From Thermoanaerobaculia bacterium (lineage in GTDB: Bacteria > Acidobacteriota > Thermoanaerobaculia > Multivoradales > JAHEKO01): a stretch of 64,000 nt of DNA. The stretch is from the NCBI GenBank assembly GCA_963781065.1, contig CAWAET010000017.1, forward strand, positions 90,805-154,804. The letters run 5' to 3'. The stretch's first letter is position 1. Each line of letters begins with the position of its first letter. Position numbers and translations under genes: made by a program. The notes under the pieces were generated by a model, which saw only the letters and a list, made by a program, of their open reading frames with translations, was not told the DNA's origin and did no database searches. Shown one piece after another: positions 24,170 to 57,600 of this stretch.

Positions 24170-25970
<1,801 letters not shown>

Positions 25971-34221: not shown

Positions 34222-34467
34222 TCAGTCCCCGGCGAGCTTGCGCTCGAGTTCCTCTAGCGAGACCGTCGCTTCCCCTCGCCGGTCCTCGATCAGCTTCCAG
34301 AGCTCGGAGCTAGTCTCCAGAACCACGGTTTCCCAATCCTGGCCTTCTACCCCGACGAGGACTGCGGCCGGCTGGCCGTGCCGCGTGACCACGACGCGGT
34401 CGTCCTGCGCGGAGTCCACCGCCTTCTTGACGCTCTTTTGAAGGTCTCGCACAGTGACTGTCTTCAT
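34222..34467 (-). CDS. Type II antitoxin, Phd/YefM family
   Basis: 81 aa, MKTVTVRDLQKSVKKAVDSAQDDRVVVTRHGQPAAVLV... Overlaps the toxin stop by 4 nt. Confidence 0.65.
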   Translation of the reverse strand: MKTVTVRDLQKSVKKAVDSAQDDRVVVTRHGQPAAVLVGVEGQDWETVVLETSSELWKLIEDRRGEATVSLEELERKLAGD

Positions 34468-34769
34468 CGGATCTCCTCCGTCGTGAGGTGCGGCGGCTTC
34501 CGCCTCACGGCCCGCACGAACACCCGCCGGTCCTCCTCGGCGACATCGTAGAAGACGCGATAGTCGCCGACACGCAGCTGCCAGATCGGCGGCACCGCCT
34601 CGAAGGGAGGTACCAGCTTGCGCAGCTGCTTGAGGTGTTTCGTGGGCCTGGTCGGCTCATGGGACAGCTTCCGCTCAATCTCGTCCAGGATCCTCTGGCG
34701 CTCGCGGGCGCGTAGCTTCTTCACGTCCTTGACGACGCTGACCGCGAAGCGAACTTCGTACACGCACAT
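34464..34769 (-). CDS. Type II toxin, RelE/ParE superfamily
   Basis: 101 aa with ...WQLRVGDYRVFYDVAEEDRRVFVRAVRRK. The toxin gene precedes the antitoxin (reverse order). A palindrome lies immediately upstream. Confidence 0.7.
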   Translation of the reverse strand: MCVYEVRFAVSVVKDVKKLRARERQRILDEIERKLSHEPTRPTKHLKQLRKLVPPFEAVPPIWQLRVGDYRVFYDVAEEDRRVFVRAVRRKPPHLTTEEIR

Positions 34770-34802: not shown

Positions 34803-35150
34803 GCCGGCTACCGGAAGCCCGCGCCCACTCGGGCTGGGCGGGCCGGCGACTCAGACCAACTGGCCCTGTCGAAGGGAAGACGCTCGTAGACCCCGGAACG
34901 AAGCGAGGTCAGGATCTCGGGCACCTCTTCCTCGGCGGCCAGGAAGAACCAGGCGGCGAGGACGAACTCGGGCTGCCAGGTGGCCAGGCCGGGCCGGGCC
35001 CTGGCGCCTAGTCGGCACCTAATCGGTAGTTGCCACCCCGCCGGGTGGTGCCTGCTTCGTCATCGACAACCTAGCCTAACCAAGCTACCTGACACGCAGG
35101 AGAGTTGCGAGTTCTCCTGCTTTCAAATGCCGGCTTCTGAGGACCAACCC

Positions 35151-37454
35151 ATGACCACGAAGGTAACTGCAATCCAAAGGAAAGTGCTCGACGCCCCGGT
35201 GGTCGAGTGCCCCGTGCTCTCCGGAACGGCGCACGATGCCTTGCTGGTGCTGACAGAGACGACACTGCAGGCGTTTGACACGAGCCTCCGTCTGTGGCCG
35301 AAGTGGACGCACAAATTCCCCGCCGGTGCCTGCCCCAAGGGCCTGACGGTGTCGAACGACGTGGCTTATTGCGTGGCCGGGAACACGCTCTACGCCCTGC
35401 ACGTCGACGACGGGACGAGACCGAAGGAATGGAAAGAAGGATTCTTCAAGAGCACCTCCGGCAACGACTTCTTGCCCCCGGTCGCGCATGAAGGCCAGGA
35501 CCACATCTATGTCATCGACGAAGGGGGCACCGTCTACAAGGTCTCACGCGACTGGGGAACTGACCGCGGCTCAGCCGGCTGGCAGGTGACTCCGCAAGCC
35601 GGCCTGGTGAACTGGCCGCCGGCCACCGACGGCACCTGGCTCTACTATCAAGTCGATCACTACCTGCTGGCCATCGACTTGGAAAGTGGTGCCGAGCAAT
35701 GGCGCTTGAATCTGAAGGAATACGATGACGCATCGGACGGGTGGACAGCCGCGTCTCCGCTGATCGCGTGGCAAAGGAGAAGCGAAGGATACATGAGTGT
35801 GATCCTGCGCGACGACCGCTCCTTCTGCTGGATACTCGTGACGCGGAGTGACCTGAGCACCAAGAAGCTACCAAGCTGCTTGACGACTTTGACAGACGGC
35901 GAGTCGAGGTCTGCAAAGGTCCTCCATCTACGGCAGGAGGCTGGCATGGCAATATGCCATCCCCCAGCAGGACAGCCTGTCATCGACCCTAGTCCGTGGG
36001 ACTTCTCGACAGCCCTATTCTCATGGATTCCTCTCGATGAACCGCAAAAAGTCAGTCCGATCGGGTGCCCGTGGTACACCGAACCGCGGTCATGGCGCCG
36101 CTTTGCCGGCAAGAGCCTTGGAACCGCGCTGTACGGCGCGGCAAACCCTCCCGCGAAGGCACCGCCGACCTTCCTGCTGGCCGTCGACGATACCGTCCAA
36201 CTCCGGCGCACCGATCACCTCGCTACCGTGATCGGCGAGTACACGATCGACCTGCAGCGCTCCCATGGCCCGGTTTGCAGTGGCGATCGCAAGGTCTACA
36301 TGACCGGGACCGCGCTCGTAGATGGAAAAGAAGCCACTTTTGTGTCGGAGTATGTCGAATTCTCTCCCGACCCCAAGGCGCCTGGCCTCACGACCTGGAG
36401 GAAGATGGACCTCGGCACGCCCTCGGTTCCCAAATGGTCGGAGTGTGCGTTCGCTCACGCCAAGTTGCCCAACACAGGCAACAACGAGAACTGGACCCGC
36501 GTGTTGATAGTAACCACGTGGGATGAGTGGGGAGGAAGCGTCGAGGTATGGCGACTAGATCAGCTTGAAGTGTCGCAACCCGTACCGGGCGGCTTCAGTG
36601 GGCCGATATCCGCAGGTGTGGGTGTCTTCGAGAGAGAGGTTGACGGGAAGACCTTTCTACTGGCCCCCGATTCGACATACAACACGGTAACCGTAGCAGA
36701 GCTGCCATCCCGGTCGAGCACGACATTGCAGGTGACGAACCCGGCCGCCATCTGCATCGACGACACTCCTGAAGGAACTGCCTACATCGTCCAAGACTCC
36801 GCCACGGTCAAGCTCGAGCTTTCCGGCGATCCCGCCAGTTGGAAGAACCGGCACACGATCCCGACGGTAAAGGAATCGATCGCGATTGCCGTCCTGCCGT
36901 GCCTATCTTGCGGGGATCATGCGCCCCACATCATCAGCCGCACGGGTTCCATGACCGCGGACTTCCCCGAGTGGAAAACGTTTTCTGTCGATCTGGGCAT
37001 GAGCCACCCCTTCCGGATCGCCGGTACCGGTTGCCCACCTTGGGCCGCCTCTCTCTATATCGCCAACCGCCCGCCGATGGCGCCCAATGCCGACTACAGC
37101 GTCCACGTGTTTCAGGTCTCAATGAACGAGAAGGGGGACTCACCCAGCTACCAGAGCGTCAAGACGATTCCGCTCATAGGCAGCGACGGCCAGCCGCGCG
37201 CACCCTATGACCTCGCCCTGGTGCCTGGCGGCAAGTGGCTGCTGGTCACCGGACAGCTCGTCCAGGGCCTGGACTATTCGGAGGGCGCTACCGGCGAGAT
37301 CTTCGTGATCGACACCCTGAGCTACCAGATCGCGGCACAACTTGCGCCCGGAATAGCAGGGGATCCACAGGGCATCGCCGTGGCCCCCGAACGGGACAAG
37401 GTGGCATGGTTGACCAGCGAGCTGAACGTCGTCGTGGCCGACCTCACCTGGTAA
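35151..37454 (+). CDS. Large beta-propeller (PQQ/BamB-like repeat) protein, 767 aa, no signal peptide
   Basis: ATG after GAGGA. Recurrent TLYALH/IYVIDEGGTVYKV/YLLAIDLESGAEQW blade-like repeats. GC about 60%, lower than the core. 38 bp upstream of the giant gene. Confidence 0.55.
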   Translation: MTTKVTAIQRKVLDAPVVECPVLSGTAHDALLVLTETTLQAFDTSLRLWPKWTHKFPAGACPKGLTVSNDVAYCVAGNTLYALHVDDGTRPKEWKEGFFKSTSGNDFLPPVAHEGQDHIYVIDEGGTVYKVSRDWGTDRGSAGWQVTPQAGLVNWPPATDGTWLYYQVDHYLLAIDLESGAEQWRLNLKEYDDASDGWTAASPLIAWQRRSEGYMSVILRDDRSFCWILVTRSDLSTKKLPSCLTTLTDGESRSAKVLHLRQEAGMAICHPPAGQPVIDPSPWDFSTALFSWIPLDEPQKVSPIGCPWYTEPRSWRRFAGKSLGTALYGAANPPAKAPPTFLLAVDDTVQLRRTDHLATVIGEYTIDLQRSHGPVCSGDRKVYMTGTALVDGKEATFVSEYVEFSPDPKAPGLTTWRKMDLGTPSVPKWSECAFAHAKLPNTGNNENWTRVLIVTTWDEWGGSVEVWRLDQLEVSQPVPGGFSGPISAGVGVFEREVDGKTFLLAPDSTYNTVTVAELPSRSSTTLQVTNPAAICIDDTPEGTAYIVQDSATVKLELSGDPASWKNRHTIPTVKESIAIAVLPCLSCGDHAPHIISRTGSMTADFPEWKTFSVDLGMSHPFRIAGTGCPPWAASLYIANRPPMAPNADYSVHVFQVSMNEKGDSPSYQSVKTIPLIGSDGQPRAPYDLALVPGGKWLLVTGQLVQGLDYSEGATGEIFVIDTLSYQIAAQLAPGIAGDPQGIAVAPERDKVAWLTSELNVVVADLTW

Positions 37455-37492
37455 CCAGTTCCGCAGAACTCCGAAGCCATAGAAAGGAACCC

Positions 37493-40400
37493 ATGAGCAA
37501 AGCGAGTACCGGCCCTTGGAAGAAGTCCTTCATCACCGAGTCCAGGAAACTCAGCACCGCGCCGCACATAGCGGGCGACGTGCTCGTCGTATCTGGCGCC
37601 AACCACCTCTACGGAGTGAGCATCTACGACTCCGCGAACGTCTGGCAGCATTCGGTCACGGCGCCCGTTACCGACCTCTCCAGCGCCGGCGGTACGGTCT
37701 TCTTCCTGGGAACTCCCGCTGATTGGGGTGGGGATGACAACCCGTTCGTGGACAACATCCTTGTCGCGATCGACGCCGGCACGGGAACGGTCAAGCAGGA
37801 GTGGCTGACGGCCACCAAGGACATTTCCGACCTGCAAAGCCCGCGCGTGGAAGGCGGTGTGGTTCTGATCAGCACCTCGGACGGCGGGCTCTATGGATTC
37901 GACAGCCAGACTGCCGACCAGCTCTGGATGACGAGAATCGGGGAGGGCGCGACGCCCCAGCACCCGAGCGTTGGGCACGGCGCGGTCTTCGCCTTCGCCA
38001 ACGACAAGCTCTATGCCGTCAACGTCCGCAGCGGCCAGCAGCGCTTCTGCTTCGACGGCGACGGCGATTCGTTGGCCGCCCGATCCGCCGCCCTGGTCGG
38101 AGACGGCCTGGTCATCGTCAGCGGCCAGGCTCACCTGCACGCCCTGGACTGGAACACGGGAGAGGCCGTTTGGAAGATCGATGTGCCGGCCGGCCAGACG
38201 TGGAACACGCCAGTTGTCTCCTGGGACGGCGGCTGCCTGTTCGTGACCAGCACCCAGGGTCATGTGTACGCTTACCCGCTCGCGGCCGACGAACGCGATG
38301 CCCTGCGAAAGGCGACCGGCGAAGCCCACTTCTGGAACAGCACGGTCGACGACCTGGCGAGATCTTCAAACCTCTCGATGACCGACCCGGCCGCGCAGGC
38401 GCCGATCCTCGAGGAGGACGTCACCCTGGTGGACGTGGCCACCGGCCGTCTGAGGAAGGGCAGCAGGGTGTTCGTGCCGGCAAGCAGCGCCGCCATGGGA
38501 GCAGTGTTCGTCCTCGATCTGACGATCGACGGCAGCCGGGCCACAGACGAGAAGTACGCCGTGGAGCTCGGCTCGCACGTCGAGGTGCAGGACCCGCCGC
38601 GGGACAAAGCTCCGGCTCCGGCTGTCGCCAACGGCACGGTGTTCACCTCCTCCCGCAGCGGCGAGGTGACCGCGACCTCCTTCGTCGAGACCACCGCGCC
38701 GTTCTTCAGCGGAAAACCGAAGGTGACCGTCCCCGAGTCCGATGACTACCTGCTAGGCGCCGGCCCCTTCAGCGTCGAGGCCTGGGTGCGCACGACCGCC
38801 GGCGGCACCGTCCCGTTCCGCTCCCCGACAACCGCCGGCAAGACCGGTTTCCGCCTCGAGGTGGTCAACGACGCGTTTTTCTCGACAACCCAGACGCCGA
38901 GCGCTACGGGGACGGGCGCGTGGTCTTCTCGCTGGGCTCGGCAGAGACGTCCGCCGCGACCTCACCCGTCGCCTCGATCCTGCTCTTCGCCCAGTCGTCG
39001 GCGACTCCCATCGCCGACGGCCGCTGCCCCTGGCCTCATCCGCAAAGGCGACGAAGTCGAGATCTTCGTCGACGGTACGAGCCTGCCGGTCGACACCATG
39101 CTCCACCTGTCCCTGGTGCCCGAGGAGCACCGGAACCAGCTGCCGCCCAATCTGAGTGTTCTTTCCCCCTTCGATCTTGCCGCGCGACCTGATCGTCCCC
39201 GAGGTGGACTCGCCCGAGGCCCTGATCATCGGCGGCGACAGCCCCTCCGATCCCGTCTTCGAAGACGCCGATGTCAAGGGCTTTACCGGGCTCATCGCGG
39301 ACGTGCGCCTGTGGAGCACGCCTCTCGGTGCCCGCCAGATTCAAGACCGCGCGAGCAAGGAGCTGAAGGGGAACGAGCCGGGCCTGCTCGGCGACTGGCC
39401 CCTCAACCAGGCGGAGCCCAAGGACTTCAAAGACCTCTGCCACCACGACCGCAAGGTCGACTCGGCCACAGGAGTCAGCCTCAAGCCGACCAACCTGAGC
39501 CTGGACAACAGCCTCTTCCCCTACCTGCTCGACAGCGTCACGGCGGAGTGGCCCAACAAGGAACGCTGGATCGCGCGCGGCGAGGACGCGCCCCGTGGTC
39601 GCCCGGCCGCCTGCGGCGAGGTGCTGGCCTTCACCACCGACCAGTGGCTCTACGCCATCGATGCCGTTCACGGCACACGCAGATGGGCGCGCGAGCTCGC
39701 GTCGCCGAGCGAGCCGGCGTCCGACCGAAAGACCTTCTACGTCACGTCGGGCACGAAGGTCGTCGCCGTCGACGCCGAGACTGGCGGCAGCCCGTGGCAG
39801 GCCATCGACCTGAGTGAGCAGAAGCCAGCCTCCGACGTACCCGCCGCCAGCGGGCCACTGCTAGCGGTTTCCAACCGGTGCGTCGTGGTCTCGGTCGATC
39901 GCAAGACGGTCTACTGGCTGGACAAAGGAACCGGCGAGGTCCTGGGCACCTACTCCGCGACCAGCGCCATCCGCGGCGAGCTGGCGGCTCGCCACGACAG
40001 CGTGTACCTCGCGGCCGACAAGCTCTACCGCTTCGCCGACGCGTCCCCAAGCGTCGTGGCGGCCTCGGCCCCCGTCGAGCTTCAGGCCGGCTCCGAGCCC
40101 CGGATGTGCGTCGAGCGCGGCCGGCTCTTCCTCTGGAGCGGCGCCTGGATCGAGTCGCTCGATGCGGGCACTCTGAAGGTGCCGCAGGTCGAGACGGCGA
40201 GCGGTTCCAAGTCCCAGGCCTGGGCACCGCCCAGCGTCCCCGCCGGCGAAGCGGTGGTGGGCCTCGCCGCTTCGGCGGCGGGCAACCGTCTGGTCGCAAC
40301 GACAGACCAAGGTCGTGTGCTGTTCCTGGATTACGGCTCGGGCGCCCAGGTGAGCACCGCCACCCTGCCCGGACTGACGATCCCATACGCCTTTGCGCCG

Positions 40401-43400
40401 GTGATCGAGGGCCAGACGGCCTACGTCACAGGCAAGGGCACCGGAGGCCAGATCCCCGGCGGCGTCTATGTCTACGATCTGGCACACGGGATGCTGCGCG
40501 CCCGTGCGGAGGTTGACTCACCCCCGGTGAGCGCGGCGTACGCCGGCTGCGGAGCGGCATACTTCGGCTGCGACGACGGTGGCCACAGCGACGCCGAAGC
40601 CATGCACTCGGTGGTCTTCGGTCAAAACCTGGCGCTTTATCGGAAAGGCAGCGAAGAGGCGCTCACCGTGCCTGGAGTAGCAGGCAAGTTCGCCGGGGCG
40701 TCCGCCTCGCCGGCGGCCAACGCCTTCGCCACCGGCACCTTCAGCCTCGAGCTGTGGATGAACGCCGCGCCGGCCGGCGACTACGAGCTGCTTTCGCTCC
40801 CGCCCTGGACTCACAGCGGCCACGACTACGGCGGCTTCCGGTTGGCCGTGAGCGGTGGAGGGCTCGTTGCCGACTTCCTCGCCGCCGGGTCGGCGCGGCG
40901 GTTCACCAGCATCGACACCGGGTTGACGGATCGGGCGTTGGCACCACGTGGCGGCGGCATTCCGAACCGGCGCCGACGGTCAACAACTTTGCCACCTCTT
41001 CGTCGACGGAGCGAAGCTCGCCAACACCAGCTACGAGGACTTGCAAGGCGTACCCGAGCCGGTGCAAGAGCCGGAGATCACCGTCGGAGGCAGTGGTGAC
41101 TCGACCTTCCGCGGAATGCTGGACGAAGTCCGCGTATGGAATACGTGGCTTCACGACGCTGAAGTGGCTGGGCGCTGCAACGTCAGGCTGTGCGGCGACG
41201 AGCCGGATCTGCTCGCCTGCTGGCGTTTCGACGATGCCGCGGTACTCGACGCCTCTCCCAATCAGCTCGGCCATGACCCGGTCGGCCCCCTGAGCCGCTG
41301 GCTCACCGACCTGAGCTTCGAGCAGCCGCGCTACCCGTTCCTGACCGCTTCGACCAAGGCCGGCGAGCTGGTCACGGCGCCCCTTTCCGAAGGCCACGGG
41401 CGAACCATCACCTCGGCCACCTTCACCACCACCATCACCGCGCGCCGGGCCGACGGTACGCCGAGGCCGGAGACAGAGCTCACAATCGACATTGCCAAGC
41501 CGGCCTCGGGAGAGATCCAGGTCGCGAGTGGAGCGACCAGTGCCGGCGGCCACGATGGCTGCACGACCTATAGCGCCAAGGCGGGAACCGACGGGCGGGC
41601 CGTTCTGCGCTGGAAGATCGAGGGAGTCGATTCGCACAAGCCGGTGGCCTCGCCGGTCCTCGAGGTCAACGCCGACTTCATGTACCCCAACGAACGCTTC
41701 CTGGTCAGCTCGGTCCGCGAGAGCCAGAGGCACGTTACGCTGCCGCCGCCGACGCTGACCGTCAAGTCCGCCATGCTCCAGGACTACGACTGGGCGCCCG
41801 GGGACACGCTCGGCACCAAGGGTGCAAACGGCGAGGTCGTTCTCCAGCCGGGCGTCGACATCACCGCGATCCGCACCACGATCACGGCGCTCTCGGGCGA
41901 CGGCAGCCCGCTGCCCGGCGAAGACCTGGAGATCTGGGCCGACGACCACGTCACCGTCGAGTGCCAGGGGACCGCCTATCCGGTCAATAAGAGCAACTCG
42001 GTCAAGCTCAAGACCGGGCACGACGGCACGGTCGTGCTGGTGATCCCCGATAAATCGACTCCCGATGGCAACCTCCTCGACGTACCCACGCTCCAGGTCC
42101 GGGCGGGGTTCATGCCGAGGAGCGCGCGCGTCGTCTTTGGCCCGGCCGAGCAGGGCCACAAGACCCTCTCCCAGGTCACTGGGGATCAGGTGGCGGGCAG
42201 GGCGAAACTCACCGCCGACCGGCCCAACCGGACTCCCCTGGTGCCGCAGGAGATCGCTAAACAAACCGACTCGAGCGAATCGGTGGCGAAGGCCTTGAAC
42301 CAGATGGCTCGGCTGACTGCCCAGCACGAGCCGCAAGGGACGACTCATGCCGGCGGCAGCGGAACGCCGCTGTGGTCGGGCGCTCAGGGCGACAACCCCG
42401 ACCTGGCACCGCCGGACGCCGTGGCGTCGATCCTCAAGGCGGCCCATCAGCGCTACCGGGCGCCGATCACGCCCGATTACATGTCGGCCAGGCACTTTGT
42501 CGTGTCCCTGGATGGCATGACCATGACCTATACGGAGTTCCACAGCGCAGAGGACCTCGACGCTCATCTGAAGACCAAGCTGGGCAAGACCTACACCGAG
42601 CTGACTCGGGACATCGCCTACGGCGGCCCCGACGACCCCGCCGGCGGCTGGTTCAAGAGCCTCAAACATCACATATCGAGTGCTTGGCACTCATTCAAGC
42701 ACGGCGTCACCCAAGCCTGGAACAAGGCCAAACACTTCGTGGTCAAGACCTGGGACGAAGCCAAGAAAGACCTCAAGCAGGTGGCGCATTTCGTGGAGGT
42801 GACGGTCGCCGACGACCTCAATGCGATCGGCAAGTGGGTCATCAAGACGGTCAAGGACGTCGTCACCCATGTGGTGGCCTTCCTCAAGAAGATCGGGACG
42901 CTGATCAAGGACGTCATCAATTTCCTGCGGGCGCTGTTCGATTGGCCGGTGACCCTGGAGATTCACGATGTGCTCAGGGAAACGATCAATCAGAACCTCC
43001 AAGGACTGAAGGCAGATCTGCAGAAGGTCCTGCCCCAGGAGGCAAAGCGCGCCTTTGCGGACGCCAAGAAGGCTCTCGACAAGGCACTCGGCGCAACGGG
43101 CAGCGGTGGTGGCGGCGCCCTGAGGGGTTACGGGCACCAGGCTTCGGGAACCTCGGCAAAGGTGCTCTCCCACGCGGGCAGCAACAAGTCGCACTACCTC
43201 CACCACAAGATCCGCGAGCACGGGCACGGCCACAGGTCGGTGCCTCGCGACCCCTTTCGTCAGGCGCCGACCGGAGACCCGCCTTTCGGAGAGATCGGCG
43301 CGCTCACCAGCCAGGGTGACCTAAACCTCAACCAAGCCTTCCAGCAGCTGGTCGGCGACCTCCAAGCCCTTCTGGATCAGCCGGGAGGCCTCACCGCGCT

Positions 43401-44466
43401 GACGCCTCACGAGCTTCTCTCGTTGGTCGAGGACTTGCTGACTCTCCTGCTCGATCTCGCCGAAGATGTCACTCTCGCCATCATGTACATTTGCGAGCTG
43501 CTCGTCGCTGGAATCAAGGACCTGCTCAATCAGGAGATCCACATCCCGTTCATCTCGGATCTCTATAAACTGATCACCGGCGGCGATTCGCTAACGATTC
43601 TCGACGTGCTTTGCCTCCTGGTGGCGATCCCGGTGCACCTCGTAGGTGCCGTGATCGGCTTGCCGAAGTTCGACAAGGGAGAGTTCAAGAGCGCTGCCGG
43701 GAGCAACGCTCTGTTCGGTAACAGCCAGGATGCGGACTTGGCGGCTCGCCAGAGCTTCGGAGCAAGTCAAACAGAGAGCGTCTCGGCCGCCACCAAGTGG
43801 TGGGACGTCAGCCACCTGATCTTCGTGTTCTTCAACGGCCTTCTATCGGGAGCACAGGACATCCTGCAGGGGAACATCAACGCCGAAGACCCGGAGGAAA
43901 CCGGCAATCAGGCCAAGGAGGAGGTGAACGTGGGAACCGGCATGTTCCTGCTCGGCCTGGCCTCTCACATCACCGCCATCTTGGCGCAAGTCAGCTTCTG
44001 GATCGTCTGCGGCCAGATCGGCAGAGGCAGTAGAATCCGGGTCGTCCGGGTTCTCGAGTTCACGCCCTCCGTCCTCCACGCGGGGGCCATGGTCTTCGGC
44101 GTGCGAAGCCAACTCGCGGGCGCCGCTCAGACCTACGGCAAGGTCTCCGTAAAGGGCCTGGGCAAGGTGCCGAAAGAGCCGCTAATGAGCCTGGTCGGTC
44201 TGGCGGCGGTCCTGGCGTCGATGGTTACCACCCTGGGGCACTGGGACCAAGAGGACGGCCAGGACCGAGCGGAGGGTTTGATCACCCTGGTTTCGGGCCT
44301 CAATCTGGCCTTCACTTTTCTCATCTGGGGGCCGGTAGCGCTGGCCTCGGAGGTTGACGGCGTTCCGACCTCTCCCCTCGCCAAAGGTGCGATGGATTTC
44401 GCCGTCTCCAGCGTCACCGCGCCCGTGGTTCACCTGATGGCAGGCTACGGCAAGGAAGTCCTGTAG
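37493..44466 (+). CDS. Giant (about 2320 aa) multidomain protein: beta-propeller, LamG/ConA-like, second beta-propeller, second LamG, bacterial Ig-like domains, and a C-terminal helical domain with 5 hydrophobic helices; reading frame broken at least 4 times
   Basis: Three overlapping ORFs (37235-39817, 39156-41099, 40948-44466) plus a short third-frame piece (38920-39192) splice into one continuous sensible protein. The frame changes are at T5 (38876-38880), C4 (about 39026-39030), C5 (39166-39170) and near 40920-40935. LamG hallmarks: FSVEAWVR, EIFVDG, FTGLIADVRLWS, GRWHHVAAAF, LFVDGAKL, GMLDEVRVWN. The C-terminus 43590-44355 has five 20-30-aa hydrophobic segments. Confidence 0.6.
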
Positions 44467-45191: not shown

Positions 45192-45758
45192 TCAGCCTCC
45201 GACGCCCGGCCGGGTTGCCGGCCCCTTTCCGGGCCCCGAATACCTCCAGCGGTTTTTCATCAGGAGCAGCAGCACGATCCGCTCCCGCGGACCAGGATTG
45301 ACCACCTCGTGGGGCAGCGTATAGTCGAAAACCTGCACCTCTCCTGCGACATAGTCTCGCCGTGCTCCGTCGACGATGATTTGAGCGCCGGGGTCGGCCT
45401 GGAGGCAGAGCGACGCCGTGACGTGGGGCTGATGGTGCACATGGCGGCGAATCCGCGCCCCCGGCGCGAGGGCCGAGAAGGAACAGGCCAGAATGCCGGA
45501 AGCTCGTTCCATCGTGGCGGCCGTCGCCGGAGCGAGCGTTCTGTTCCTCAGCAGCAGAGCCTGTGGCACCACCCCCCGGTCCTCTTCCTCGACCCGTAGG
45601 GGCAGCGCCCTCCAGGTACCGGCAGCGGCGCGGTCGTCATTGACCGTCAGCATACGGTCGCTCAGGGCCAGCGCTTCGTCTCGCATGGCCGCCCAGCGCT
45701 CGATGAACGGAGCCAGCTGGGGATATGCCTCAGGAGACTGGTACACCGCGTAAGCCAC
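45192..45758 (-). CDS. Aspartyl/asparaginyl beta-hydroxylase-like 2OG/Fe(II) oxygenase (cupin), soluble
   Basis: ...ILACSFSALAPGARIRRHVHHQP...VQVFDYTLPHEVVNPGPRERIVLLL resembles the AspH/LpxO catalytic domain. GTG start is uncertain. 2-nt gap to the C1 peptidase gene. Confidence 0.6.
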   Translation of the reverse strand: MAYAVYQSPEAYPQLAPFIERWAAMRDEALALSDRMLTVNDDRAAAGTWRALPLRVEEEDRGVVPQALLLRNRTLAPATAATMERASGILACSFSALAPGARIRRHVHHQPHVTASLCLQADPGAQIIVDGARRDYVAGEVQVFDYTLPHEVVNPGPRERIVLLLLMKNRWRYSGPGKGPATRPGVGG

Positions 45759-45812
45759 TCTACTACAGTGACTTAAACGAGTCTGGCTAGCTGGAAAAAG
45801 GAGGGAAAGAGT

Positions 45813-45865
45813 TGGTGTCCCCAGCGGGATTCGAACCCGTGTTACCAGCTTGAAAGGCTGGGTGC
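45813..45865 (-). tRNA. Partial tRNA-Glu(UUC): 3' 50 nt only (anticodon arm, variable loop, T-arm, acceptor 3' strand + CCA); att-site-like remnant
   Basis: The minus strand reads CCCAGCCTTTCAAGCTGGTAACACGGGTTCGAATCCCGCTGGGGACACCA. This is collinear with positions 27-76 of E. coli tRNA-Glu (anticodon loop CUUUCAA, T-loop TTCGAAT). No D-arm or 5' acceptor strand (GTCCCCA) is present upstream. Confidence 0.65.
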
Positions 45866-45984
45866 AGAATCCAGCAAGTCTCCCTATTTGAGTGACTTAC
45901 GAGCAGCAACTGAATGGGTGGTGACCTTCTTGGTCACCTACGCTAGCGACTTCGGCGATGGGCAGCAGCGCGTAGCTTTGCCGA

Positions 45985-48646
45985 CTAGCGGGTCCCGGCT
46001 CTGCGCTTGTGGATTCCCTTTACCCAGCGTTCTAGCTCAGCAACATCTGCGGTGAGCTCCTCCGGCTCGGGCACAGGTACATTCTCCGCTGCTGCTTGGT
46101 CGTGGCCGGGAAGCCACCGGGAGGCCTTGGACATTGCGGCCTCCAGCGTCCTGCAGTCCTTCTCGTTGATATCTGAGAGCAGGCCGACTCGGAGCGTTTG
46201 AATGGAAGGGCGGTAGCGTTGGACGACGCCAGCCAATAGGACTTCCTCGAGCGCACGCTCCCACGCCTCGCGGAGTAAGCCGTAGATGTAGATGGCTTCC
46301 TTCTCGTAGACGTCTCGAGAACTCTTCCGGAAGAGCTTCTCTACCGCCTGGCATTTCTGCTTGAGCACGCCAATTCGGTCCTTGACGCGCATGGCGACCC
46401 ACGGGAGTTCCGGTGACGCAACGCCAGCCCCAAGCGCGTCGCTCCTCACGTACTGGTACACGCACTCGCAACCAGCCTCCTCCGCTCCGCCAGCTAAGGC
46501 CAGCACGAAGACGATGTCGTGGGTGAACACTACGACTTGGCGGTGCTGCGCCTCCTGGGCTAGGCGACGTGCCACATTCTCGCGCCACACATGGTCAAGC
46601 GACGATACCGGATCGTCGAAGAGAATGGCCGACTCATCGGAGGCGGTAGCCAGCTCCGCGAAGAACGAGGCAATCGCAAGAGCACGAGCCTCCCCTTCAC
46701 TCACTACGCGATACAGCGTGGCACCGGGAGCACGCTTCAGGACCAGCCGATGGTAGAGGGCACCACGTTGACCCCCAGCAGCTTCGAGCACTACTTCGAG
46801 ATGGGTGAAGCCGATGCGTTCGAGCTCCGTCCGGAAGGCACCTGCCAGCTGGTCCGTGACAGCCCGCTTTGTAACATCCGTACTCTTGCGCGTAATGTCC
46901 CGCGTGTTCGTCTCGCGAAGACAGAGGCTGTACGCGGCTAGCTGCTTCTTTCGTTCGATCTCGGCAATGACCGCGTCCGCCCCCTTCCCGAGACTCTCCC
47001 TGGCGGAGAGCTCGCGAATCTCGCCATGGAGCTGTTCGGCGGCCGCCTGCGGTTTCTGGCCGGCCAGTTCGGAGCTACGGGCCTGCAGCGCAGCACTTTC
47101 TTCGTGGATTAGCGCTGCAAGCCCGGCCTGCAATGGCGGCAGACCAGCCGGCATCTCCGAGCCCTTGTCGAGAGTCACAACAACCTCTTGCTGGCGTTTC
47201 TCGCTGCGGCAATGAGCCCCGCGGCCTTGCTAGCCAGGGCGGTGTTCTCTAGGCGGAGTTCGGCCAGCTGGTTCTCTGTGGCTTCGTGGCGGTCGGACAA
47301 GTGCTTGAGCTCGAGGACTGAGCGCTGCCACGACACCCTCTCCTGGTCCACACTCTGTTGCAGCGTTGACCCTACGTAGTCCTCGAAGTTGCTCGAGCCG
47401 CCTCACGGCGGCGGGAGCCAGGGCCTGCTGGCAGAGCACACAGTGGGCCCCTTCGTGGATATGTGGAAACGGTTTGCCACGGTACGCACTCCCGGTCGAG
47501 AAGGCCCGTGCCGCCTCCCAGAGCTTTCGCCACAGGGGGCCACCAGACCCTGGAAGCAGGTCAGCCGGAAGAACCTGGTGGCGGTGTTCAGTCGCTGCCG
47601 ACTCTGCTTCTGAGAATGCCGTCCTCCGGTCGAACAGCGAATCCAGTCCCTCGTCACCCACGACGGAGACCACTGAGTCCACGTGCCTTGCGAGTGCCTC
47701 GACACGCTCTCCTCTCAGCCGCAGGGTCGCTGCACAGTCTCTTCGGGTCCTGTGCTCTTAGGTCGTCGAGCCGTTTGCGTAACTCCGCGAGCGCACGCTG
47801 TTCTTCCTCTGCGAGCGTGCCAAGGGAACGTACCCGTTCTGGCTGCGTGAGTGAACTCAGCGAGGCAAGTAGCTTCGCCGCCTCAGTACCCTCCGGAAGC
47901 TCAGGAAGGGCGTTCCGCTGAGCCTCAAGGACTCGCTGTTCCCGTTCGAGGATCCGCTTGACCGCCTGGCAAGCGTTGGAGAGTCCGTCAAAGAGGTCCA
48001 AGCCGAACGGCCGGAACGCTACGTCGGTCTTCTCCCGCAAGTACACGCTGGCGCAGTGGGTGTCGAAGACACTCACGTGGCCGAGCGCATTGTCAGGCTC
48101 ATCCTGGTCGGCCCACGCGAACTCCTTCTCTTCGTCTCCCGATCTGAACGAGATCGTCGCCGCCGGCCGGGCCGGCGCTTGGCTCTGGAATACATTGCCG
48201 AGAATGCTCTCAGCTCCTCGCGCGCGGCAGGCCCGCTTCAGTATGCGGGTATACCCGGACTTTCCGGCAGCGTTCGGTCCGTAGACAATCGTAAGGTCGG
48301 GGCCGAATTCGATCTGTTGCCCTGCCGCGAGTGCGTTTACGCCGGCGAGGTGGGTTAGCGAAGATAGGCTCGTTGGCGAAGATCCCGGTGTCCTTTGTGG
48401 GAGGTGACGCTTCTCTAGAGGATGGGCCACGGCGACTTCTGGGTCGGCGAGGCCATGCTCCGCTTTGCAGAGACCGGCCAACTCCTCGGCATCTTCTTGG
48501 CCGGGCTCTCCCTGGGTGACTAGACGCCGGAGGGCATCTCGTTGCCAGGCTGGAAGAGACGCTGACCAAGACAGGATCTCAGCGAGTACGTCCACGGTAG
48601 ACGGCCTCGTCTCTCCGGGTCGCGTTGGTTCCTTTGGCTTCCGCAT
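45985..48646 (-). pseudogene. Rad50/SbcC-like ABC ATPase with CxxC zinc hook (RloC/PrrC-like candidate anticodon nuclease or related defence ATPase); disrupted by a frameshift (about 47655-47682) and an in-frame TAG (47230-47232)
   Basis: N-terminal piece: Walker A IVYGPNAAGKSGYTRIL. Middle piece: coiled-coil with HCVLCQQ. C-terminal piece: signature-like VSEGEARALAIA, Walker B AILFDDPVSSLD, H-loop VVVFTHD, then a roughly 190-aa C-terminal domain containing WLPGHD. Confidence 0.55.
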
Positions 48647-48727: not shown

Positions 48728-50437
48728 CTACTCTTCCGACTCCGCGGTAGCCGCCTCCAGGGCTTCGAAGTACGGCAGGAAATCCGCCCAGATGCGACCT
48801 GCCAGCCCGGCGTCGACGACCTTGACGTTAGGCACGGGGGATTCCTGGCGCCAGACCTTGATGATCAGTGCTGCGCCGGGCCTGAAAGCCTCCGGGGGAT
48901 ACTCGTAGGCGCCGAAGAAACCGATGTCGTCCATGCTCTGCAGGCCCGCCTCCATGCTGACGACCTGAGCGATGCGGCCCGGGTGGATCGGTTGCACGAG
49001 GGTCTGGCCTCGATAGAGCTCCATCCTCTCGAAGTCGGTCTTGAACCTGTAGCGGGTGGGGACGCTCGGCCCGGCGAGTGCCACCGCCCAGGCGGATCCG
49101 GTCGTCATGCGTATTTCAGGAACGGCCTGCACCACGACCACTGGGCGGTAGTCTCCGGCATAGCGGCGCCATTCGTAGAAGTCGCCCGGATCCGAGACTT
49201 TCCTTGCGTTCGCCTTCCTCCTGGTCCTCTTGTTGCGGGTCCTTGCCGCGGCCTTCTCGACCTCGATCTCCAGTGCCGCGATAACCACCGGCGTCATGAA
49301 CTCCACATCGATCTTGCCCGCCTCCAGGTGGTAGAGATTCGGTGTCAGGTTCTTCCTCTGGGCGAGCACGCGCAGCTCTTCCGCGGGAAAGGTGAACGTC
49401 GACTCAATCGGCAGCCTTTCCAGCGGCGGCGGCGAACTCTCGCCCAGGCCGGCACGGGCCTCCTCGAGCACCGCGGCAGCGAGGTGGATCCTGACAATTC
49501 CCGACACGCCCGGGCCGACCCTGCCCGACCCTATGCCGAATGTGTTGACGCCGATCACCCGCCCGCGCGAATCGAAAAGGGGGCCACCGGAGTTCCCAGG
49601 GTTTATGTTCACGTCGCTGTAGATGGCTCCCTGCTCCACCTTGCTTACCAGGCCGCTGGTGAGAATCGTTTCCGTCACCAACGGGCTGCCGATGGCAACG
49701 ACGCGCTCTCCGACTCCGAAGGACGGCCGCTCTGGAGTCTCGCCAGCGAGCTCGAGGGCGCGCGCGTTCTTCACGGCGACCGGATTGACCTGCAGCACCG
49801 CCAGATCATTGAGATCATCCTGCGCCACGAGCTTCGCCGAGTACTTGTTCTGCTTGTCGACCTTGACCGCCAAGTACTCCGAGTCGGCCACCACATGGTG
49901 GTTCGTCAGCACCAGACCCGCTTCGGCATCGACCAGGAAGCCACTGCCGTGCCCGCCCTCGGCGGAGATCTTGAAGACACTGTCCTTGAAGCGGCGGAAG
50001 ATGTCGCCCTCGTCGAGGGCCACGCTCCGCTCGACTGACGTTTCCAGCTCGACGACCTCCGCGTTGTCGTTGGACAGCTCCACCACCGTGCCACCTTCGG
50101 CCGGTACTTCGAAGGCGAGCTCCCAGCGATAGCGCGCCCCCTCGAACTCCACCGGCGCCCGACTCGAAATGACGTACCGGCCGACAGGCAGATCAGCCTC
50201 CGCCTCGCCGGTGAAGCCGGTTGTGATCTCCGTGGGGCCACCGTCGCCGTCTTGCGGCCGGATCTCGAAAGTCTGCTTGGGCACGGGCCGCAGCGTTAGG
50301 TCCGAGGCCACAAGAATGACCCGTAGAGTGAGCCTCCCTGACGCCGGCGGTGGGTCCTCACCTAGCATCGGTGAGGCACCGGCCAACGAGAGGATCGCCA
50401 GAATCATGAGAACACACGAGGACTGTTTCAACACCAT
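48728..50437 (-). CDS. Secreted trypsin-like serine protease (S1C/HtrA-like catalytic domain) with N- and C-terminal extension domains
   Basis: Signal peptide MVLKQSSCVLMILAILSLAGA. Catalytic triad context GHGSGFLV...TNHHVV (His), DLAVLQV (Asp), GNSGGPLFD (Ser). The start is Met95 of the ORF. Confidence 0.75.
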   Translation of the reverse strand: MVLKQSSCVLMILAILSLAGASPMLGEDPPPASGRLTLRVILVASDLTLRPVPKQTFEIRPQDGDGGPTEITTGFTGEAEADLPVGRYVISSRAPVEFEGARYRWELAFEVPAEGGTVVELSNDNAEVVELETSVERSVALDEGDIFRRFKDSVFKISAEGGHGSGFLVDAEAGLVLTNHHVVADSEYLAVKVDKQNKYSAKLVAQDDLNDLAVLQVNPVAVKNARALELAGETPERPSFGVGERVVAIGSPLVTETILTSGLVSKVEQGAIYSDVNINPGNSGGPLFDSRGRVIGVNTFGIGSGRVGPGVSGIVRIHLAAAVLEEARAGLGESSPPPLERLPIESTFTFPAEELRVLAQRKNLTPNLYHLEAGKIDVEFMTPVVIAALEIEVEKAAARTRNKRTRRKANARKVSDPGDFYEWRRYAGDYRPVVVVQAVPEIRMTTGSAWAVALAGPSVPTRYRFKTDFERMELYRGQTLVQPIHPGRIAQVVSMEAGLQSMDDIGFFGAYEYPPEAFRPGAALIIKVWRQESPVPNVKVVDAGLAGRIWADFLPYFEALEAATAESEE

Positions 50438-50821
50438 TACGCGCCTCCCTCTGTACTCGAGTCTGCCAGGCTCGAGCGCGAGAGGATGCCTCCTGCCCAC
50501 AGAATCGCCCTCATGCCTTCGAGTTGGCGCCGGCGGAATCAACCGCAATCCCCCTGCCCCTCCTGGTTGGTTTCGACAGACTATGACGTAGGCGAAAGCA
50601 GTGTCGCCACCCTCACGGGTGGCCACACGCCAATATAGGGTCTCCCTACTTTTCGCCGGAGCAGCGCCGAGCACCAAAGCCACAGGCTCTCCCAGCACAT
50701 CTGTGGCGGTCGACACCACTAGAAGCCGCCCTCACACCCGATTCCTCACGACCTTCCGCCCGAAGATCCTGAGGACTCTCGGGCGCATATGAAACCTACT
50801 AATCTGGGCACCTATCTGGCG

Positions 50822-52282
50822 TCAGGGGCACTCAAGATTCGCATCCTTCGAGCGCAGGTTGAACTCTTCGTTCTGGATTCGCCAGACGTTCCGTTCCCCT
50901 ACGAAGGTCAAGACCTTGTTGCCGGTGTCGCTGAACCGGTCCGACCTGTACGCCTGGAGGAACCTGACCCGGTAGCGGCCATCCCCGGCCCGCTCGACGA
51001 TCGGCTCGGAGACTTCCACTTGCACTATGCATCTAGGCTCACCAAACCTCTCGCGCCGACGCCTCTCCCATGTAGCCCGGTCGGCGGGGCCCGCTGGCCG
51101 GAACCCGGCGGCATAGAACGATAGGTACGCCTCGATGTCCTGCTGCGACCAAGCGGCGGCCCAGTCGCGGACGCGGCCGAGAAGCTCGGTCTCGACTGCC
51201 TTCTGCGCCGGCGGCAGCGGTTCCGGCGGTCTGGGCGGCTCGGTGACTCTGTGCGCTCCCGGGCCTCGCTTCCGTTCCGCGGAAGGCGCATCCACCCGAG
51301 CGGCGCCACCCAGCGGACGCACCCAGAGTAGCGAGGTGAAGCCCTTCCCGGTCGAGTCTCGTGTATCTAGGTAGTCGAGGTACTTGCCCTTCCATGGATC
51401 GTTGATGATCCAGATTCTCTTGCCGTCGGTCGCGATGCCCTCGGGGGAGAACCTCTCGGGCTTGGGCCGCGCGTCGAGATTCAGATCGACAACCTCTCGT
51501 GCCTGGCCTTTGTCTTGACCGAGGTCCCAGAAGATCACTCGCTCCTGATTGCGCATCAAGATCAGGAGCAGGCCGCCCCTCGCCAAAGCCAGTCCGTTGA
51601 AGTTGGAATCCTCCGTGACAGCGCCTGAGAGCGAGGTCCAGTCAAGAACCAGAGAGTCCTCATCGAGTCTCGGCGCGCCGACCGCTGTCTTGAAGAGGAG
51701 CGGTCTTTCCTCGTCGTCGCGCTCGAAGGCCAGGTACAGGCTGACTCCGTCGTCACCCACCGCGCAGCCCTCGATGCGGCTGTTGTCAGGGGACCCCTCT
51801 GATTTCGACCCCGGGTAGTGCTCGATGCCCTCTATCTTGACGGCATCCTCAACGACCGCCGAATAGCCGCCCGTCTCGTTGTGCGTGACCTTGATCGTCA
51901 CGACCTGCGGTGTCTCCTCATCCTCGGTCACGGCGATGAACTTCCGCAGCTTCGCGCCACCGTCCGGCAGCTCTGCGAGGCACTCGAAGTCGGGATTGCG
52001 GATGTCCGAACGCGCTATGGGCACGGGCGGGTGCGTCAGTTGCGCGTCACCAACTCCAATGCGCAGCATGCGGCCGGTACCTTCCGCACATTCGGTGCAA
52101 TTCTGGTCGGTGATGGCCCAGAGGGCCTGGCCGCCGGTGTCACCGTCGTCGACCCAGGTGAGCCCGGAGATCTGGTAGTCCCCGAGATCCTCCCCGTTGG
52201 TGCCCTTGACCCACTGTCCGTCCTGCGGGCTCGCCGTCAGCAGAAGCGCCAACGGAACCAGTGCCAGGAACCTGCCGATCAC
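50822..52282 (-). CDS. Secreted hypothetical protein with C-terminal NTF2-like (DUF4440/SnoaL-like) domain
   Basis: Signal peptide MIGRFLALVPLALLLTASP. The C-terminal 120 aa (DWAAAWSQQDIEAYLSFYAAGF...VRFLQAY...) is NTF2-fold-like. Confidence 0.5.
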   Translation of the reverse strand: MIGRFLALVPLALLLTASPQDGQWVKGTNGEDLGDYQISGLTWVDDGDTGGQALWAITDQNCTECAEGTGRMLRIGVGDAQLTHPPVPIARSDIRNPDFECLAELPDGGAKLRKFIAVTEDEETPQVVTIKVTHNETGGYSAVVEDAVKIEGIEHYPGSKSEGSPDNSRIEGCAVGDDGVSLYLAFERDDEERPLLFKTAVGAPRLDEDSLVLDWTSLSGAVTEDSNFNGLALARGGLLLILMRNQERVIFWDLGQDKGQAREVVDLNLDARPKPERFSPEGIATDGKRIWIINDPWKGKYLDYLDTRDSTGKGFTSLLWVRPLGGAARVDAPSAERKRGPGAHRVTEPPRPPEPLPPAQKAVETELLGRVRDWAAAWSQQDIEAYLSFYAAGFRPAGPADRATWERRRRERFGEPRCIVQVEVSEPIVERAGDGRYRVRFLQAYRSDRFSDTGNKVLTFVGERNVWRIQNEEFNLRSKDANLECP

Positions 52283-52440: not shown

Positions 52441-53845
52441 TCAGCGCTCGATTCCGAGCCCCATCCCGCGAGTGATGATCCGCGCCGGAGCCTTGGCCAG
52501 TGCCACCGTGACCCGAAGAGCGTTGAAGGCTGGGCCGGGTATGAGCCGCGCCACGGCCCGCCAACCGAGCCGCCGAACCACCGAGACCGCCTGGGCTCGA
52601 AGTCGCTTCTCCGGCGCGTAGCGTCGATCGAGCGCCTCCAGCCGTCTGAGCGCCCGTCCAAGAACCTGCCGCGCCCGACCTGCAGCCTCGAGCACCGGGT
52701 GCTTCGGATTCCGGCGGAAGGGCTCCAATCGCTGAAGCGCAGTGCGCTCCGCCTGCCGCGCCGAGGCGTAGCTGCGGATCGCCCCGGGAACCCTCTCGCG
52801 CAGAGCATCGCGAGCCTGACCGCGAGCCCGCGAGGCGACATGGCCGTGGAGCTTGCCGGCACTGGCAGGCCGCTCGCTGAGGGCTCTCAGCGTTGCCCCT
52901 GCCCCGTGACGTTCCAGGGTCGCCTCGATTCGCTGCCGGGCCGCAACGGGATCGCGATAGACCCGACCCAGCGCCGCATCCAGTTGGCGCGAGGCCTGGC
53001 TCACCCGCTCGGCTGCCCGCTCGTGGTCGGCGAGGGCCCTGCCCAGCCTCGCGAGCGAACCCTGATACCGCCCCCGCATCGCCTCCAGCCGCCCCCGGCT
53101 CATCAGCTGCCGCGAGATCTCCTGGATCTTCCGCAGATCCGGCGACGCCGGCTCGAACTTCCCCAGCCGCGCCTCGAGCCGCGGCCGGCTCATCTCCCGC
53201 TCGACCCTCGACGCCGCCACGTACCGCCGCCCATCGGTGATCACCAGCCCCCGCCCCGCCCGCGACGGCTGCAGCGTCAGCCCCTTCTGCGACAGCGACG
53301 CATGCAGCTCCTGCCAGCCCTTCGCCTCCCGAAAGCTCTCCCCCGCCAGCTCCCGCACGTTCTCGACGAACTGCCCTCTCCCCGGCCGCGTCCCCAGGTA
53401 CCGATCCTGCCCCGGCACCGGCGAATGCCGCCCCGGCACGATCCTGCAGCCCCAGCTCCCGCTCCTGCTCCCGCAGCGAGGTCTCGATCCGGTGGTAGTC
53501 GTGCGAGCCCACCCAGGCCCGCCCGGTGTCCGGGTGGACCCGGTTCACCATCAGGTGGATGTGCTGCTGGGCGCCGTCGGCGTGCTCGGCGATCAGCGCC
53601 TGGTGCTCGGCGAGGCCCAGGTCCTGGAGCAGCCGGTCGGCGACCCGCTCGAGCTCGGCCCGTTCCAGCCGCTCGCCGGGGGCCAGGCTGACCGAGAGGT
53701 GATAGACGGGCTTCTCGGTGCGGCTCGAGGCGTTGGCCGTCGCGCGCATCACGGCCGCGGCCTTCTCCGGGTCGGGGTCCGGGAGGTTCCGGGTGGCGGT
53801 CCAGATCGAGCGATCCGGCACCAAAAGGTGCCGTAGGCTTCGCAA
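52441..53845 (-). pseudogene. MOB-family conjugative relaxase (MobA/VirD2-like) with frameshift near 53440; copy 1 of 3
   Basis: N-terminal relaxase domain with VYHLSVSLAPGE and the 3-His motif HADGAQQHIHLMVNRV. The C-terminal half continues in another frame (…WQELHASLSQKGLTLQPSRAGRGLVITDGRRYVAASRV...). Confidence 0.65.
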
Positions 53846-54499: not shown

Positions 54500-54870
54500 G
54501 TGCCATGCCCTTCGGGGAAGGACGGTGCGCGACCTCGGCGACATGGCCGTGGAGCTTTCCAGCACTGGCAGGCCGCTCGCCGAGGGCTCTCAGCGTTGCG
54601 CCAGCTCCGTGACGTTCCAGCGTCGCCTCGATTCGCTGTCGGGCCGCAACGGGATCGCGATAGACGCGACCCCGCGCTGCATCCAGTTGACGCGAGGTCT
54701 CGCTCACGCGCTGGGCTGCCCGTTCGTGGTTGGCGATTTCCCTGCCCAGCTTCGCCCCGAAGTGAGGTCCACCCTTCTCGGAATAGAGCCGTAGTGCTTC
54801 AGCCGGCGGGACCGAGACGCCCTCGCGAGCCTGGAGTGTCGGGCCGGAGCGATAGGCTTGCACGGTGACG
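54500..54870 (-). pseudogene. Relaxase gene fragment (copy 2; C-terminal-region segment only)
   Basis: Encodes ...ERAAQRVSETSRQLDAARGRVYRDPVAARQRIEATLERHGAGATLRALGERPASAGKLHGHVA. About 85-90% nucleotide identity to 52840-53080 of copy 1. Confidence 0.5.
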
Positions 54871-56879: not shown

Positions 56880-57600
56880 CTACCGGAAGGTGCTGAACAG
56901 GTAGACATCGAAGGAGGCCTCGAGTACTGAGTGCTTCGGATTCCGGCGAAAGGGCTCCAATCGCCGCAGAGCAGTACGCTCCGCCTGACGCGCCGAGGCG
57001 TAGCTGCGGATCGCGCTGGGAACTCTCTCGCGCAGAGCATCGCGCGCCTGACCGCGAGTTCGCGAGGCGACATGGCCGTGGAGCTTGCCGGCGCTGGCAG
57101 GCCGCTCGCCAAGCGCTCTCACCGTTGCCCCTGCTCCATGCCGTTCGATCGTCGCCTCGATCCGCTGCCGTGCCGCCACGGGATCGCGATAGACCCGACC
57201 CAGCGCCGCGTCCAGCTGACGCGAAGCCTGACTCACCCGCTCAGCTGCCCTTTCGTGATTGGCCGGAGGGGACGGCGTGGAGTTCAGCGCTCGATTCCGC
57301 GCCCCATCCCGCGGGAGATGATCCGTGCTGGAATAGTCGTGCGAGCCCACCCAGGCCCTTCCGGTGTCGGGGTGGACCCGGTTCACCATCAAGTGGATGT
57401 GCTGCTGGGCGCCGTCGGCGTGCTCGGCGATCAGCGCCTGGTGCTCGGCGAGACCGAGCTCCGTGCTGAGGCCTTGGCCAGCGCCACCGTGACCCGAACA
57501 GCGTTGAAAGCCGGGCCGGGAGTCAGCCGCGCCACGACCCGCCAACCGAGCCGCCGAACCACTGAGACCGCCTGGGCTCGAAGTTGTTTCTCAGGCGCGT
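56880..57600 (-). pseudogene. Relaxase gene remnant (copy 3; internally deleted fusion of the 3-His motif region to the C-terminal segment)
   Basis: Encodes GLAEHQALIAEHADGAQQHIHLMVNRVHPDTGRAWVGSHDY fused to ...ERAAERVSQASRQLDAALGRVYRDPVAARQRIEATIERHGAGATVRAL...PFRRNPKHSVLEA. Nucleotide segments duplicate 52460-52640, 52840-53100 and 53470-53640. Confidence 0.5.

Follow-up and report, generated by a model that had tools for sequence, protein, structure and literature searches.

How does the 3′ part of a tRNA gene come to stand by itself, and what does it say about the DNA on either side of it? A short segment on the minus strand of an acidobacterial contig of 223,632 bp raises this question. 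It lies within a stretch of 64,000 nucleotides, which as a whole is referred to here as the window. The preliminary description of this DNA had read the segment as the orphan 3′ half of a tRNA-Glu(UUC) gene, and had taken it as the signature of site-specific integration at the edge of an accessory region.

An orphan 3′ part of tRNA-Glu(UUC)

The tRNA-like block, a putative att core, occupies positions 45813-45861 on the minus strand and reads CCAGC-CTTTCAA-GCTGG-TAAC-ACGGG-TTCGAAT-CCCGC-TGGGGAC-A-CCA. It comprises the anticodon stem-loop (UUC), a 4-nt variable loop, the T arm, the 3′ acceptor strand, the discriminator A and CCA, corresponding to tRNA positions 27-76. The span first assigned to it, 45813-45865, was right in placing a tRNA-Glu 3′ part here and slightly too long: the true block measures 49 nt, and 45862-45865 is not tRNA-like. 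A 41-nt pattern taken from the fragment retrieved a single contig from metagenome contigs (L002, Ga0255057_10001857), on which ARAGORN calls an intact tRNA-Glu(UUC) at 2536-2613. Across positions 27-76 the fragment is identical to this tRNA in 48/49 bases, and a chance match to the fragment is excluded (0 in 100 shuffles). The sole mismatch changes T65 to C and turns the A49-U65 pair of the T stem into A.C, damage that is expected of a copy no longer under selection as a tRNA. The same 41-nt pattern, which contains two N, gave no match in 185,579 representative genomes and none in IMG/VR, which marks this tRNA-Glu variant and its host lineage as poorly sampled.

The 5′ half of the L002 tRNA has no match anywhere in the window at up to three mismatches. 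Directly upstream of position 27, comparison with the same tRNA yields 10/29 identities, and when the 79 nt upstream are aligned locally with gaps, the score is 11.0, below the mean of 15.7 +/- 2.8 for 5000 shuffles. As judged from these alignments, the 5′ half is truly absent, being neither diverged nor displaced inside the window. A split tRNA with its 5′ half elsewhere in the window was also considered, and is ruled out by the lack of any match at three or fewer mismatches. Together, the 48/49 match and the absent 5′ half bear out the original reading of the segment as an orphan 3′ half of tRNA-Glu(UUC).

The fragment lacks the complete cloverleaf, paired acceptor stem and D arm of a functional tRNA gene. 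ARAGORN calls no tRNA or tmRNA gene in the whole 64-kb window, and Rfam at its gathering threshold returns no match for the fragment or the window. When the threshold is relaxed, the Rfam tRNA model reaches 18.2 bits (gathering score, 29), with alignment confined to the anticodon and T arms; the D-arm region is handled as an unaligned insert. A search for a second copy agreed with the fragment being single: the 49-mer and its sub-segments each occur once in the 64 kb, with none expected. Nor did the 64 kb yield further, degraded att copies of the kind that tandem islands would show.

On L002 itself, a second sequence resembling a tRNA 3′ end (…GGGAGTTCAAATCTCGCCGTCCCGACCA) lies at about 2700-2765 on the plus strand, ~90 nt downstream of the intact tRNA-Glu. 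It receives no ARAGORN call and may be an att remnant of L002.

Gene content on the two sides of the fragment

Genes were called by third-position GC and annotated with Pfam. The first 24 kb of the window are core-like, with a GC content of ~0.71, and encode a TonB-dependent receptor, ECF sigma factors, NiFe-hydrogenase/NuoF-like proteins and two-component systems. Beyond this part both GC and GC3 are lower, with GC at ~0.62-0.68 from ~24-30 kb onward. On the side of lower coordinates, 3′ of the fragment in tRNA orientation, lie MscS, CorA and CNNM genes, a Phd/ParE pair, PQQ-propeller/LamG ORFs, a gene for a 228-aa protein and a cupin gene. The Phd/YefM-ParE toxin-antitoxin pair (34222-34769, minus strand) sits between the end of the core-like transporter genes and a low-GC locus of repeat proteins, and could plausibly mark the edge of an island; no sequence resembling an att site was found at it. 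The cupin, an Asp/Arg-hydroxylase-like protein encoded at 45192-45758 on the immediate 3′ flank, is the product of a rarely found accessory gene: among 5.8 billion proteins it has only 3 homologs, and so small a family cannot serve for a comparison of the native flank.

The PQQ-like beta-propeller and LamG domains are spread over four overlapping long ORFs on the plus strand (34980-44466). Their coding phase changes three times, at ~37.3, ~39.0 and ~41.0 kb, and they may represent one or two giant surface or toxin-like genes split by indels.

On the side of higher coordinates, the fragment is followed by genes for an ATPase, a trypsin-like protein, a Cds6_C protein, a relaxase and two DsbA/thioredoxin proteins, together with relaxase remnants. 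Farther on there are genes for a Peptidase_S74-domain protein, a Y1 transposase, a YHYH protein and a histidine kinase that is cut by the window end. The ATPase (AAA_13/AAA_21; 45985-48646, minus strand) is a PADLOC candidate defence protein, PDC-S06, whose reading frame is broken by ~3 indels. Its profile, PDLC04891, matches with positions 4-184 on 48646-48047 (E=5.5e-46) and with positions 484-857 on 47178-45985 (E=7e-115, unrounded 6.9e-115), and the middle part is recovered in the third frame, so that the profile is represented at full length. The gene likewise aligns end to end with a 681-aa homolog (P0040) over three frames, with shifts at ~47737, ~47385 and ~47195. This strong match to PDC-S06 justifies the label "defence-type" that the gene had been given. 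The ATPase also has a weak match to the PrrC model (E=2.6e-4). An apparent nonsense codon at 47230-47232 was rejected as a lesion of the gene, as it sits in the out-of-frame stretch between two indels.

Two further cargo genes on the minus strand encode a 663-aa protein with a trypsin-like serine protease domain (48728-50719; Trypsin_2, 3e-26), which is weakly similar to the protease part of PADLOC RT-Protease_XI, and a 486-aa protein with a Cds6_C NTF2-like C-terminal domain by Pfam (50822-52282). Next to them, the MobA/VirD2-family relaxase with a TraI_middle-type C-part (52441-53845, minus strand; Pfam Relaxase, 2.7e-29) carries one frameshift near 53444-53451 (about 53447): of the 483-aa homolog P0007, residues 28-151 align in frame -1 and residues 149-483 in frame -2. 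Two remnants on the same strand follow. The shorter one (54546-54749) is homologous to P0007 residues 284-350 (repeat match of 65%). The other (56913-57613; Pfam Relaxase, 5.5e-11) is scrambled, its pieces matching residues 289-404, 89-154 and 421-471 out of order, and it has 88-95% nucleotide identity to the relaxase copy at 52.4-53.6 kb. Three relaxase copies on one strand suggest that related mobilisable elements were acquired or duplicated repeatedly and that deletion then followed.

The features had been taken to fit an integrative mobilisable element extending towards or beyond the window end, and the evidence for one is mixed. Such an element would combine a relaxase, with or without an accessory protein and oriT, with an integration module between att repeats. 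The frameshifted relaxase, its two remnants and one att-type sequence are present. No NikA/MobC accessory gene was detected adjoining the relaxase, and no integrase domain was found on the called ORFs by Pfam or in a six-frame translation of the unannotated gaps between 47.1 and 63.4 kb; the tyrosine integrase (PF00589) that Islander looks for inside an island interval was not seen within the window.

Frameshifts and the quality of the assembly

The ATPase had been described as disrupted and as accompanied by relaxase remnants. The defence ATPase and the relaxase remnants are real, but compared with intact homologs the lesions of the ATPase and of the relaxase at 52441-53845 amount to 1-3 indels and nothing else. 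A frame break of the same kind affects a housekeeping gene in the window, the GTP-type PEPCK gene at 24170-26023. Its GC3 phase switches near 25.3 kb, the conserved HPNARFT motif is encoded in the shifted frame, and comparison with a 96%-identical gene (L009) reveals a single additional G in the window. Since all lesions are indels and the PEPCK gene is itself frameshifted, assembly error is as likely an explanation as decay, and the secure remnants are the two short scrambled relaxase copies alone. The pattern also serves as a warning that "pseudogenes" of this contig may be assembly errors.

Related contigs in the databases bear names in the manner of low-coverage long-read assemblies (ctg..._9x_l). 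An independent short-read contig (L001) has 100% identity to another part of the window than the fragment junction. Among relatives found with PEPCK, the nearest is a MAG contig of 3 kb with 93%; the rest reach 74% at most and are scattered over many phyla. No close relative with which an empty site could be compared was found in the collections searched.

A nine-base motif on both sides of the core

The fragment is bracketed by a 9-mer, TAAGTCACT, which occurs exactly twice in the 64 kb (0.03 expected), both times on the tRNA strand and once on either side of the core. Copy 1 lies 30 nt 5′ of the core at 45891-45899, within a repeat unit at 45876-45899, and copy 2 lies 38 nt 3′ of the CCA at 45767-45775, within a unit at 45751-45775 (both minus strand). 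When one mismatch is allowed, all three copies in the window fall within 150 nt of the fragment. The repeat extends to a 24-nt direct repeat with 75% identity and a spacing of 124 nt. Each copy is paired with an imperfect inverted partner to form a small partial palindrome; for copy 2 the partner is at 45751-45759 and has one mismatch.

The hairpins at the two copies are thermodynamically weak, with z-scores of about -0.9 (copy 1, -0.86) and -1.7, and the fold of the wider fragment region is no more stable than those of shuffles (z -0.21). No consensus sigma-70-like promoter or terminator was found around the fragment. Given weak hairpins, an ordinary regional fold and the lack of a promoter or terminator, the motif looks like a protein-recognition sequence and not like a structure. 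Copy 1, in its weak imperfect hairpin, is a candidate arm-type or protein-binding site. The alternative that the flanking hairpins are transcription signals or stable structures was rejected on the same observations, namely the missing promoter and terminator and folding no better than that of shuffles.

In having a short motif repeated on both arms around a core, the site resembles an attP. The attP of heterobivalent tyrosine integrases has arm-type sites on both arms (PMC4880445). As read from the lambda genome sequence, the annotated Int arm sites are AGGTCACTAA, CAGTCACTAT and AGGTCACTAT, and all of them share GTCACT with the 9-mer of the window. In both cases the core is flanked on the two sides at a distance of tens of bases, the core here being tRNA-derived and the 9-mers lying on the same strand. 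The two also differ: the window has no adjacent integrase gene, it has one copy per side whereas lambda has five sites, and its copies each lie in a small imperfect palindrome. The six-base resemblance to the lambda arm sites may be coincidence. A reading of the 9-mer as an arm site would be built on a short motif and the analogy to lambda, and the partial palindromes would equally suit an unrelated regulator. The bracketing 9-mer provides a concrete candidate for an integrase arm-binding motif, which the N-terminal domain of a cognate integrase would bind. Two patterns combining the arm motif with tRNA-Glu gave no matches to a homologous att architecture in a viral contig collection.

Two other repeats were observed in the window. 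A perfect palindrome, GGTGACC-N5-GGTCACC, lies at 45919-45937, just past the stop codon of the ATPase gene and before repeat copy 1. As a DNA hairpin it reaches -7.7 kcal/mol (z -4.85), with none of 200 shuffles equally stable; it has no T-run and was not called a terminator, and it has a GTCAC core in common with the TAAGTCACT repeat. The Y1 (IS200-like/RAYT-like) transposase ORF at 60185-61231 on the plus strand has a 27-nt inverted repeat on both sides, 85% complementary, whose arms (60224-60250 and 61438-61464) are unrelated in sequence to TAAGTCACT.

Origin of the fragment

Displaced 3′ tDNA fragments at the ends of genomic islands are reportedly the subject of work by Reiter in 1989 and by Williams in 2002. 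In the Islander collection, such fragments mark island ends (Hudson et al. 2015, PMC4383910): of 3919 islands, 3760 contain a 3′ tDNA fragment and 2083 have an anticodon-centred attP (PMC4383910). The fragment described here follows the same pattern. It matches the 3′ part of a tRNA gene (48/49), it begins with the very first stem base of the anticodon arm, ends with the CCA and so fits one of the known crossover sublocations (anticodon loop, T loop or T/acceptor junction), namely the anticodon loop, and the mobile and defence genes sit on the side predicted by its orientation, that is, 5′ of it and towards higher coordinates. It would be placed in Islander class "A". The statement that integrases targeting tRNA genes duplicate exactly this 3′ portion is borne out by its extent, which is that of the commonest class of tRNA-targeted att sites (anticodon-centred, 3′ fragment). 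The window differs from Islander-type islands in that no intact tRNA of the same orientation is found within 18 kb and no integrase within 64 kb.

On balance, the 49-nt block is probably a relic att site from an integrative element that targeted tRNA-Glu and belonged to the anticodon-centred class. It would then be not a gene but an attachment-site copy of the tRNA-Glu(UUC) 3′ part, left by the element or carried on it. The tyrosine integrase of such an element would cross over in the anticodon loop, and the attP of the element would hold the tRNA sequence from the anticodon stem onwards to the 3′ end. Integration would complete the host tRNA gene with the attP copy, and the host's own 3′ part, now displaced, would persist as a direct repeat at the opposite end of the island and have island DNA 5′ of it. 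The 5′ side in the window, from 45.9 kb to at least ~57.6 kb, would represent mobilisable-island content (the candidate defence ATPase, the protease, the relaxase and its remnants), and the cognate intact tRNA-Glu and integrase, if they survive, would lie beyond coordinate 64000.

The claim of a site-specific integration signature is supported by the extent of the fragment, by the gene content around it, by GC and GC3 below those of the first 24 kb, and by the P4-type integrases of islands elsewhere that carry a related relaxase or the same ATPase family; what the window does not contain is an integrase, an intact tRNA-Glu or a second repeat, the latter two being absent from the 18 kb on the predicted side and from the rest of the 64 kb. 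With no integrase in the window and no relatives for an empty-site comparison, the interpretation is supported in part. Also comparable are CIMEs, cis-mobilisable islands described in streptococci, which are flanked by att sites and have no integrase of their own; by definition, their two att sites are recognised in trans by the integrase of a related element. The window resembles them in combining an att-type site and island cargo with no linked integrase, and differs in that one site is visible.

If the fragment is an att relic, it is an ordinary instance of a well-known phenomenon and leaves the current understanding of tRNA-targeted integration unchanged. Its main value is as an annotation aid, in that it indicates where horizontally acquired DNA has a boundary or junction in a high-GC lineage that is poorly sampled, predicts where an intact tRNA-Glu and an integrase should be sought, and flags the candidate defence gene PDC-S06 as island cargo.

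A different history would be that an intact tRNA-Glu lost its 5′ half by deletion, through illegitimate or IS-mediated recombination, and became a tRNA pseudogene with no site-specific integration involved. The region is prone to rearrangement, as seen in the relaxase, of whose three copies two are scrambled and in fragments, and it includes the Y1 transposase with its flanking inverted repeats; that neither an integrase nor a partner repeat is seen in the window would also fit a deletion. However, the break falls to the base where the anticodon stem begins on its 5′ side, which is the canonical limit of anticodon-centred att blocks (PMC4383910) and a place where a random deletion endpoint would land about once in 76 cases, and a deletion leaves the unique 9-mer around the fragment unexplained. 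We consider this history unlikely, and infer that recombination, not deletion, made the fragment, and likewise where its partner site would lie.

Because the contig has the marks of a noisy metagenome assembly from long reads, probably of low coverage, with single-base frameshifts in the PEPCK and relaxase genes and about three in the ATPase gene, the junction might also be chimeric. It would then have been joined at a brief conserved stretch of tRNA sequence, for instance between an attL/attR pair, with an excised circle or between two strains, and would exist in no single genome. Mis-joins are a different type of error from indel noise, though, and GC content and gene style are alike on both sides of the fragment. 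The identical 9-mer on either side of the core ties the two flanks together, and the short-read contig supports the window at 100%, although in another part than the junction. An assembly artefact is in our view decidedly improbable.

Returning to the att relic, the position of TAAGTCACT bears on the kind of site that it represents. At an island/chromosome junction (attR), the 5′ arm alone is element DNA. The presence of the 9-mer on both arms suggests that both flanks are DNA of an integrating element, and the rare hydroxylase gene on the 3′ flank is consistent with this. Whether the site is attP-like (P-O-P′), with element DNA on both sides, we judge to be about evenly balanced. An attP-like site would mark the place where two accreted elements meet, or would have outlived its own integrase, and would not be a simple border between island and chromosome. 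The suggestion of a second island at the same hotspot, on the side of the lower-GC toxin-like locus, gains some support from the bracketing 9-mer, whereas no second att copy was found there.

There is a very small chance that the fragment is a working part and not a relic, either as an attP-like site that can be moved in trans or as an expressed RNA resembling a tRNA half and coupled to the ATPase. In the former case, the tRNA-Glu core and the TAAGTCACT arms would let an integrase-less defence and mobilisation island use the integrase of another element; in the latter, the RNA, coupled to the PDC-S06/AAA_13 ATPase, would for example be a decoy for, or a sensor of, some activity directed at tRNA. 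It is hardly credible that the fragment is a functional stand-alone RNA of this type (a decoy or regulator tied to the AAA_13-family ATPase) or a cis-regulatory element of the hydroxylase gene, since the adjoining defence-candidate ATPase with its PrrC anticodon nuclease match (weak, E=2.6e-4) and the conserved motif pair on both sides of the fragment are set against the lack of a sigma-70-like promoter and a terminator, an unremarkable regional fold, a T stem damaged by T65C, an arrangement not found in representative genomes or viral contigs, and ATPase homologs in other loci that have no tRNA or fragment alongside.

Related elements in other loci

The closest full-length relative of the relaxase with genomic context is P0007, which has 74% identity in the nuclease domain and belongs to a RepA_C-NikA/MobC-relaxase module on a 1.24-Mb contig, with no tRNAs nearby. 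The relaxase gene of L003 has 70% nucleotide identity to that of the window. A more distant relative, related to the window relaxase at about 55% identity in the nuclease domain, is found in an element on ENA ERZ25039549 contig_30788 (L007). Here a P4-type integrase (Arm-DNA-bind_3 and Phage_integrase) abuts a truncated tmRNA at 529-705 on the minus strand, which has an internal deletion and scores 39.6 bits with Rfam (gathering 47). At the other border lies a tRNA-Glu(UUC)-like gene (14419-14492, minus strand) that reaches 43 bits with Rfam and is rejected by ARAGORN on account of three acceptor-stem mismatches; it is possibly a chimeric att product. The element further contains an AAA_13 ATPase, Abi genes, NikA, the relaxase and a resolvase.

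This element resembles the window in its relaxase, in an AAA_13 ATPase with Abi-type cargo and in the tRNA- or tmRNA-derived sequences at its borders. It differs in having an intact P4-type integrase, NikA and a resolvase, and its AAA_13 protein is not detectably similar to that of the window; the relaxase N-domain and the tRNA-Glu segment alone match. Its borders indicate that elements with the relaxase type of the window use tRNA- or tmRNA-type sites.

Homologs of the PDC-S06 ATPase were found in two kinds of setting. In two loci (L091 and L092), the family is carried as cargo by an island of ~10 kb that has a P4-type integrase and lies between direct repeats of non-tRNA origin; elsewhere, homologs lie beside IS fragments. 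No tRNA or tRNA fragment was present beside the ATPase homologs in the other loci examined. The island of L091 measures ~9.7 kb, has imperfect non-tRNA direct repeats at 2612-2721 and 12331-12509, and adjoins amtB/glnB. In two further loci, L089 (7457-10046) and L090 (3248-5841), the ATPase, as called, is divided between an ORF of ~175 aa and, after it, one of ~680-690 aa, unlike the PADLOC PDC-S06 profile, which describes one protein of 858 positions. The split in L089 and L090 is either a real two-gene variant or the result of frameshifts in long-read contigs.
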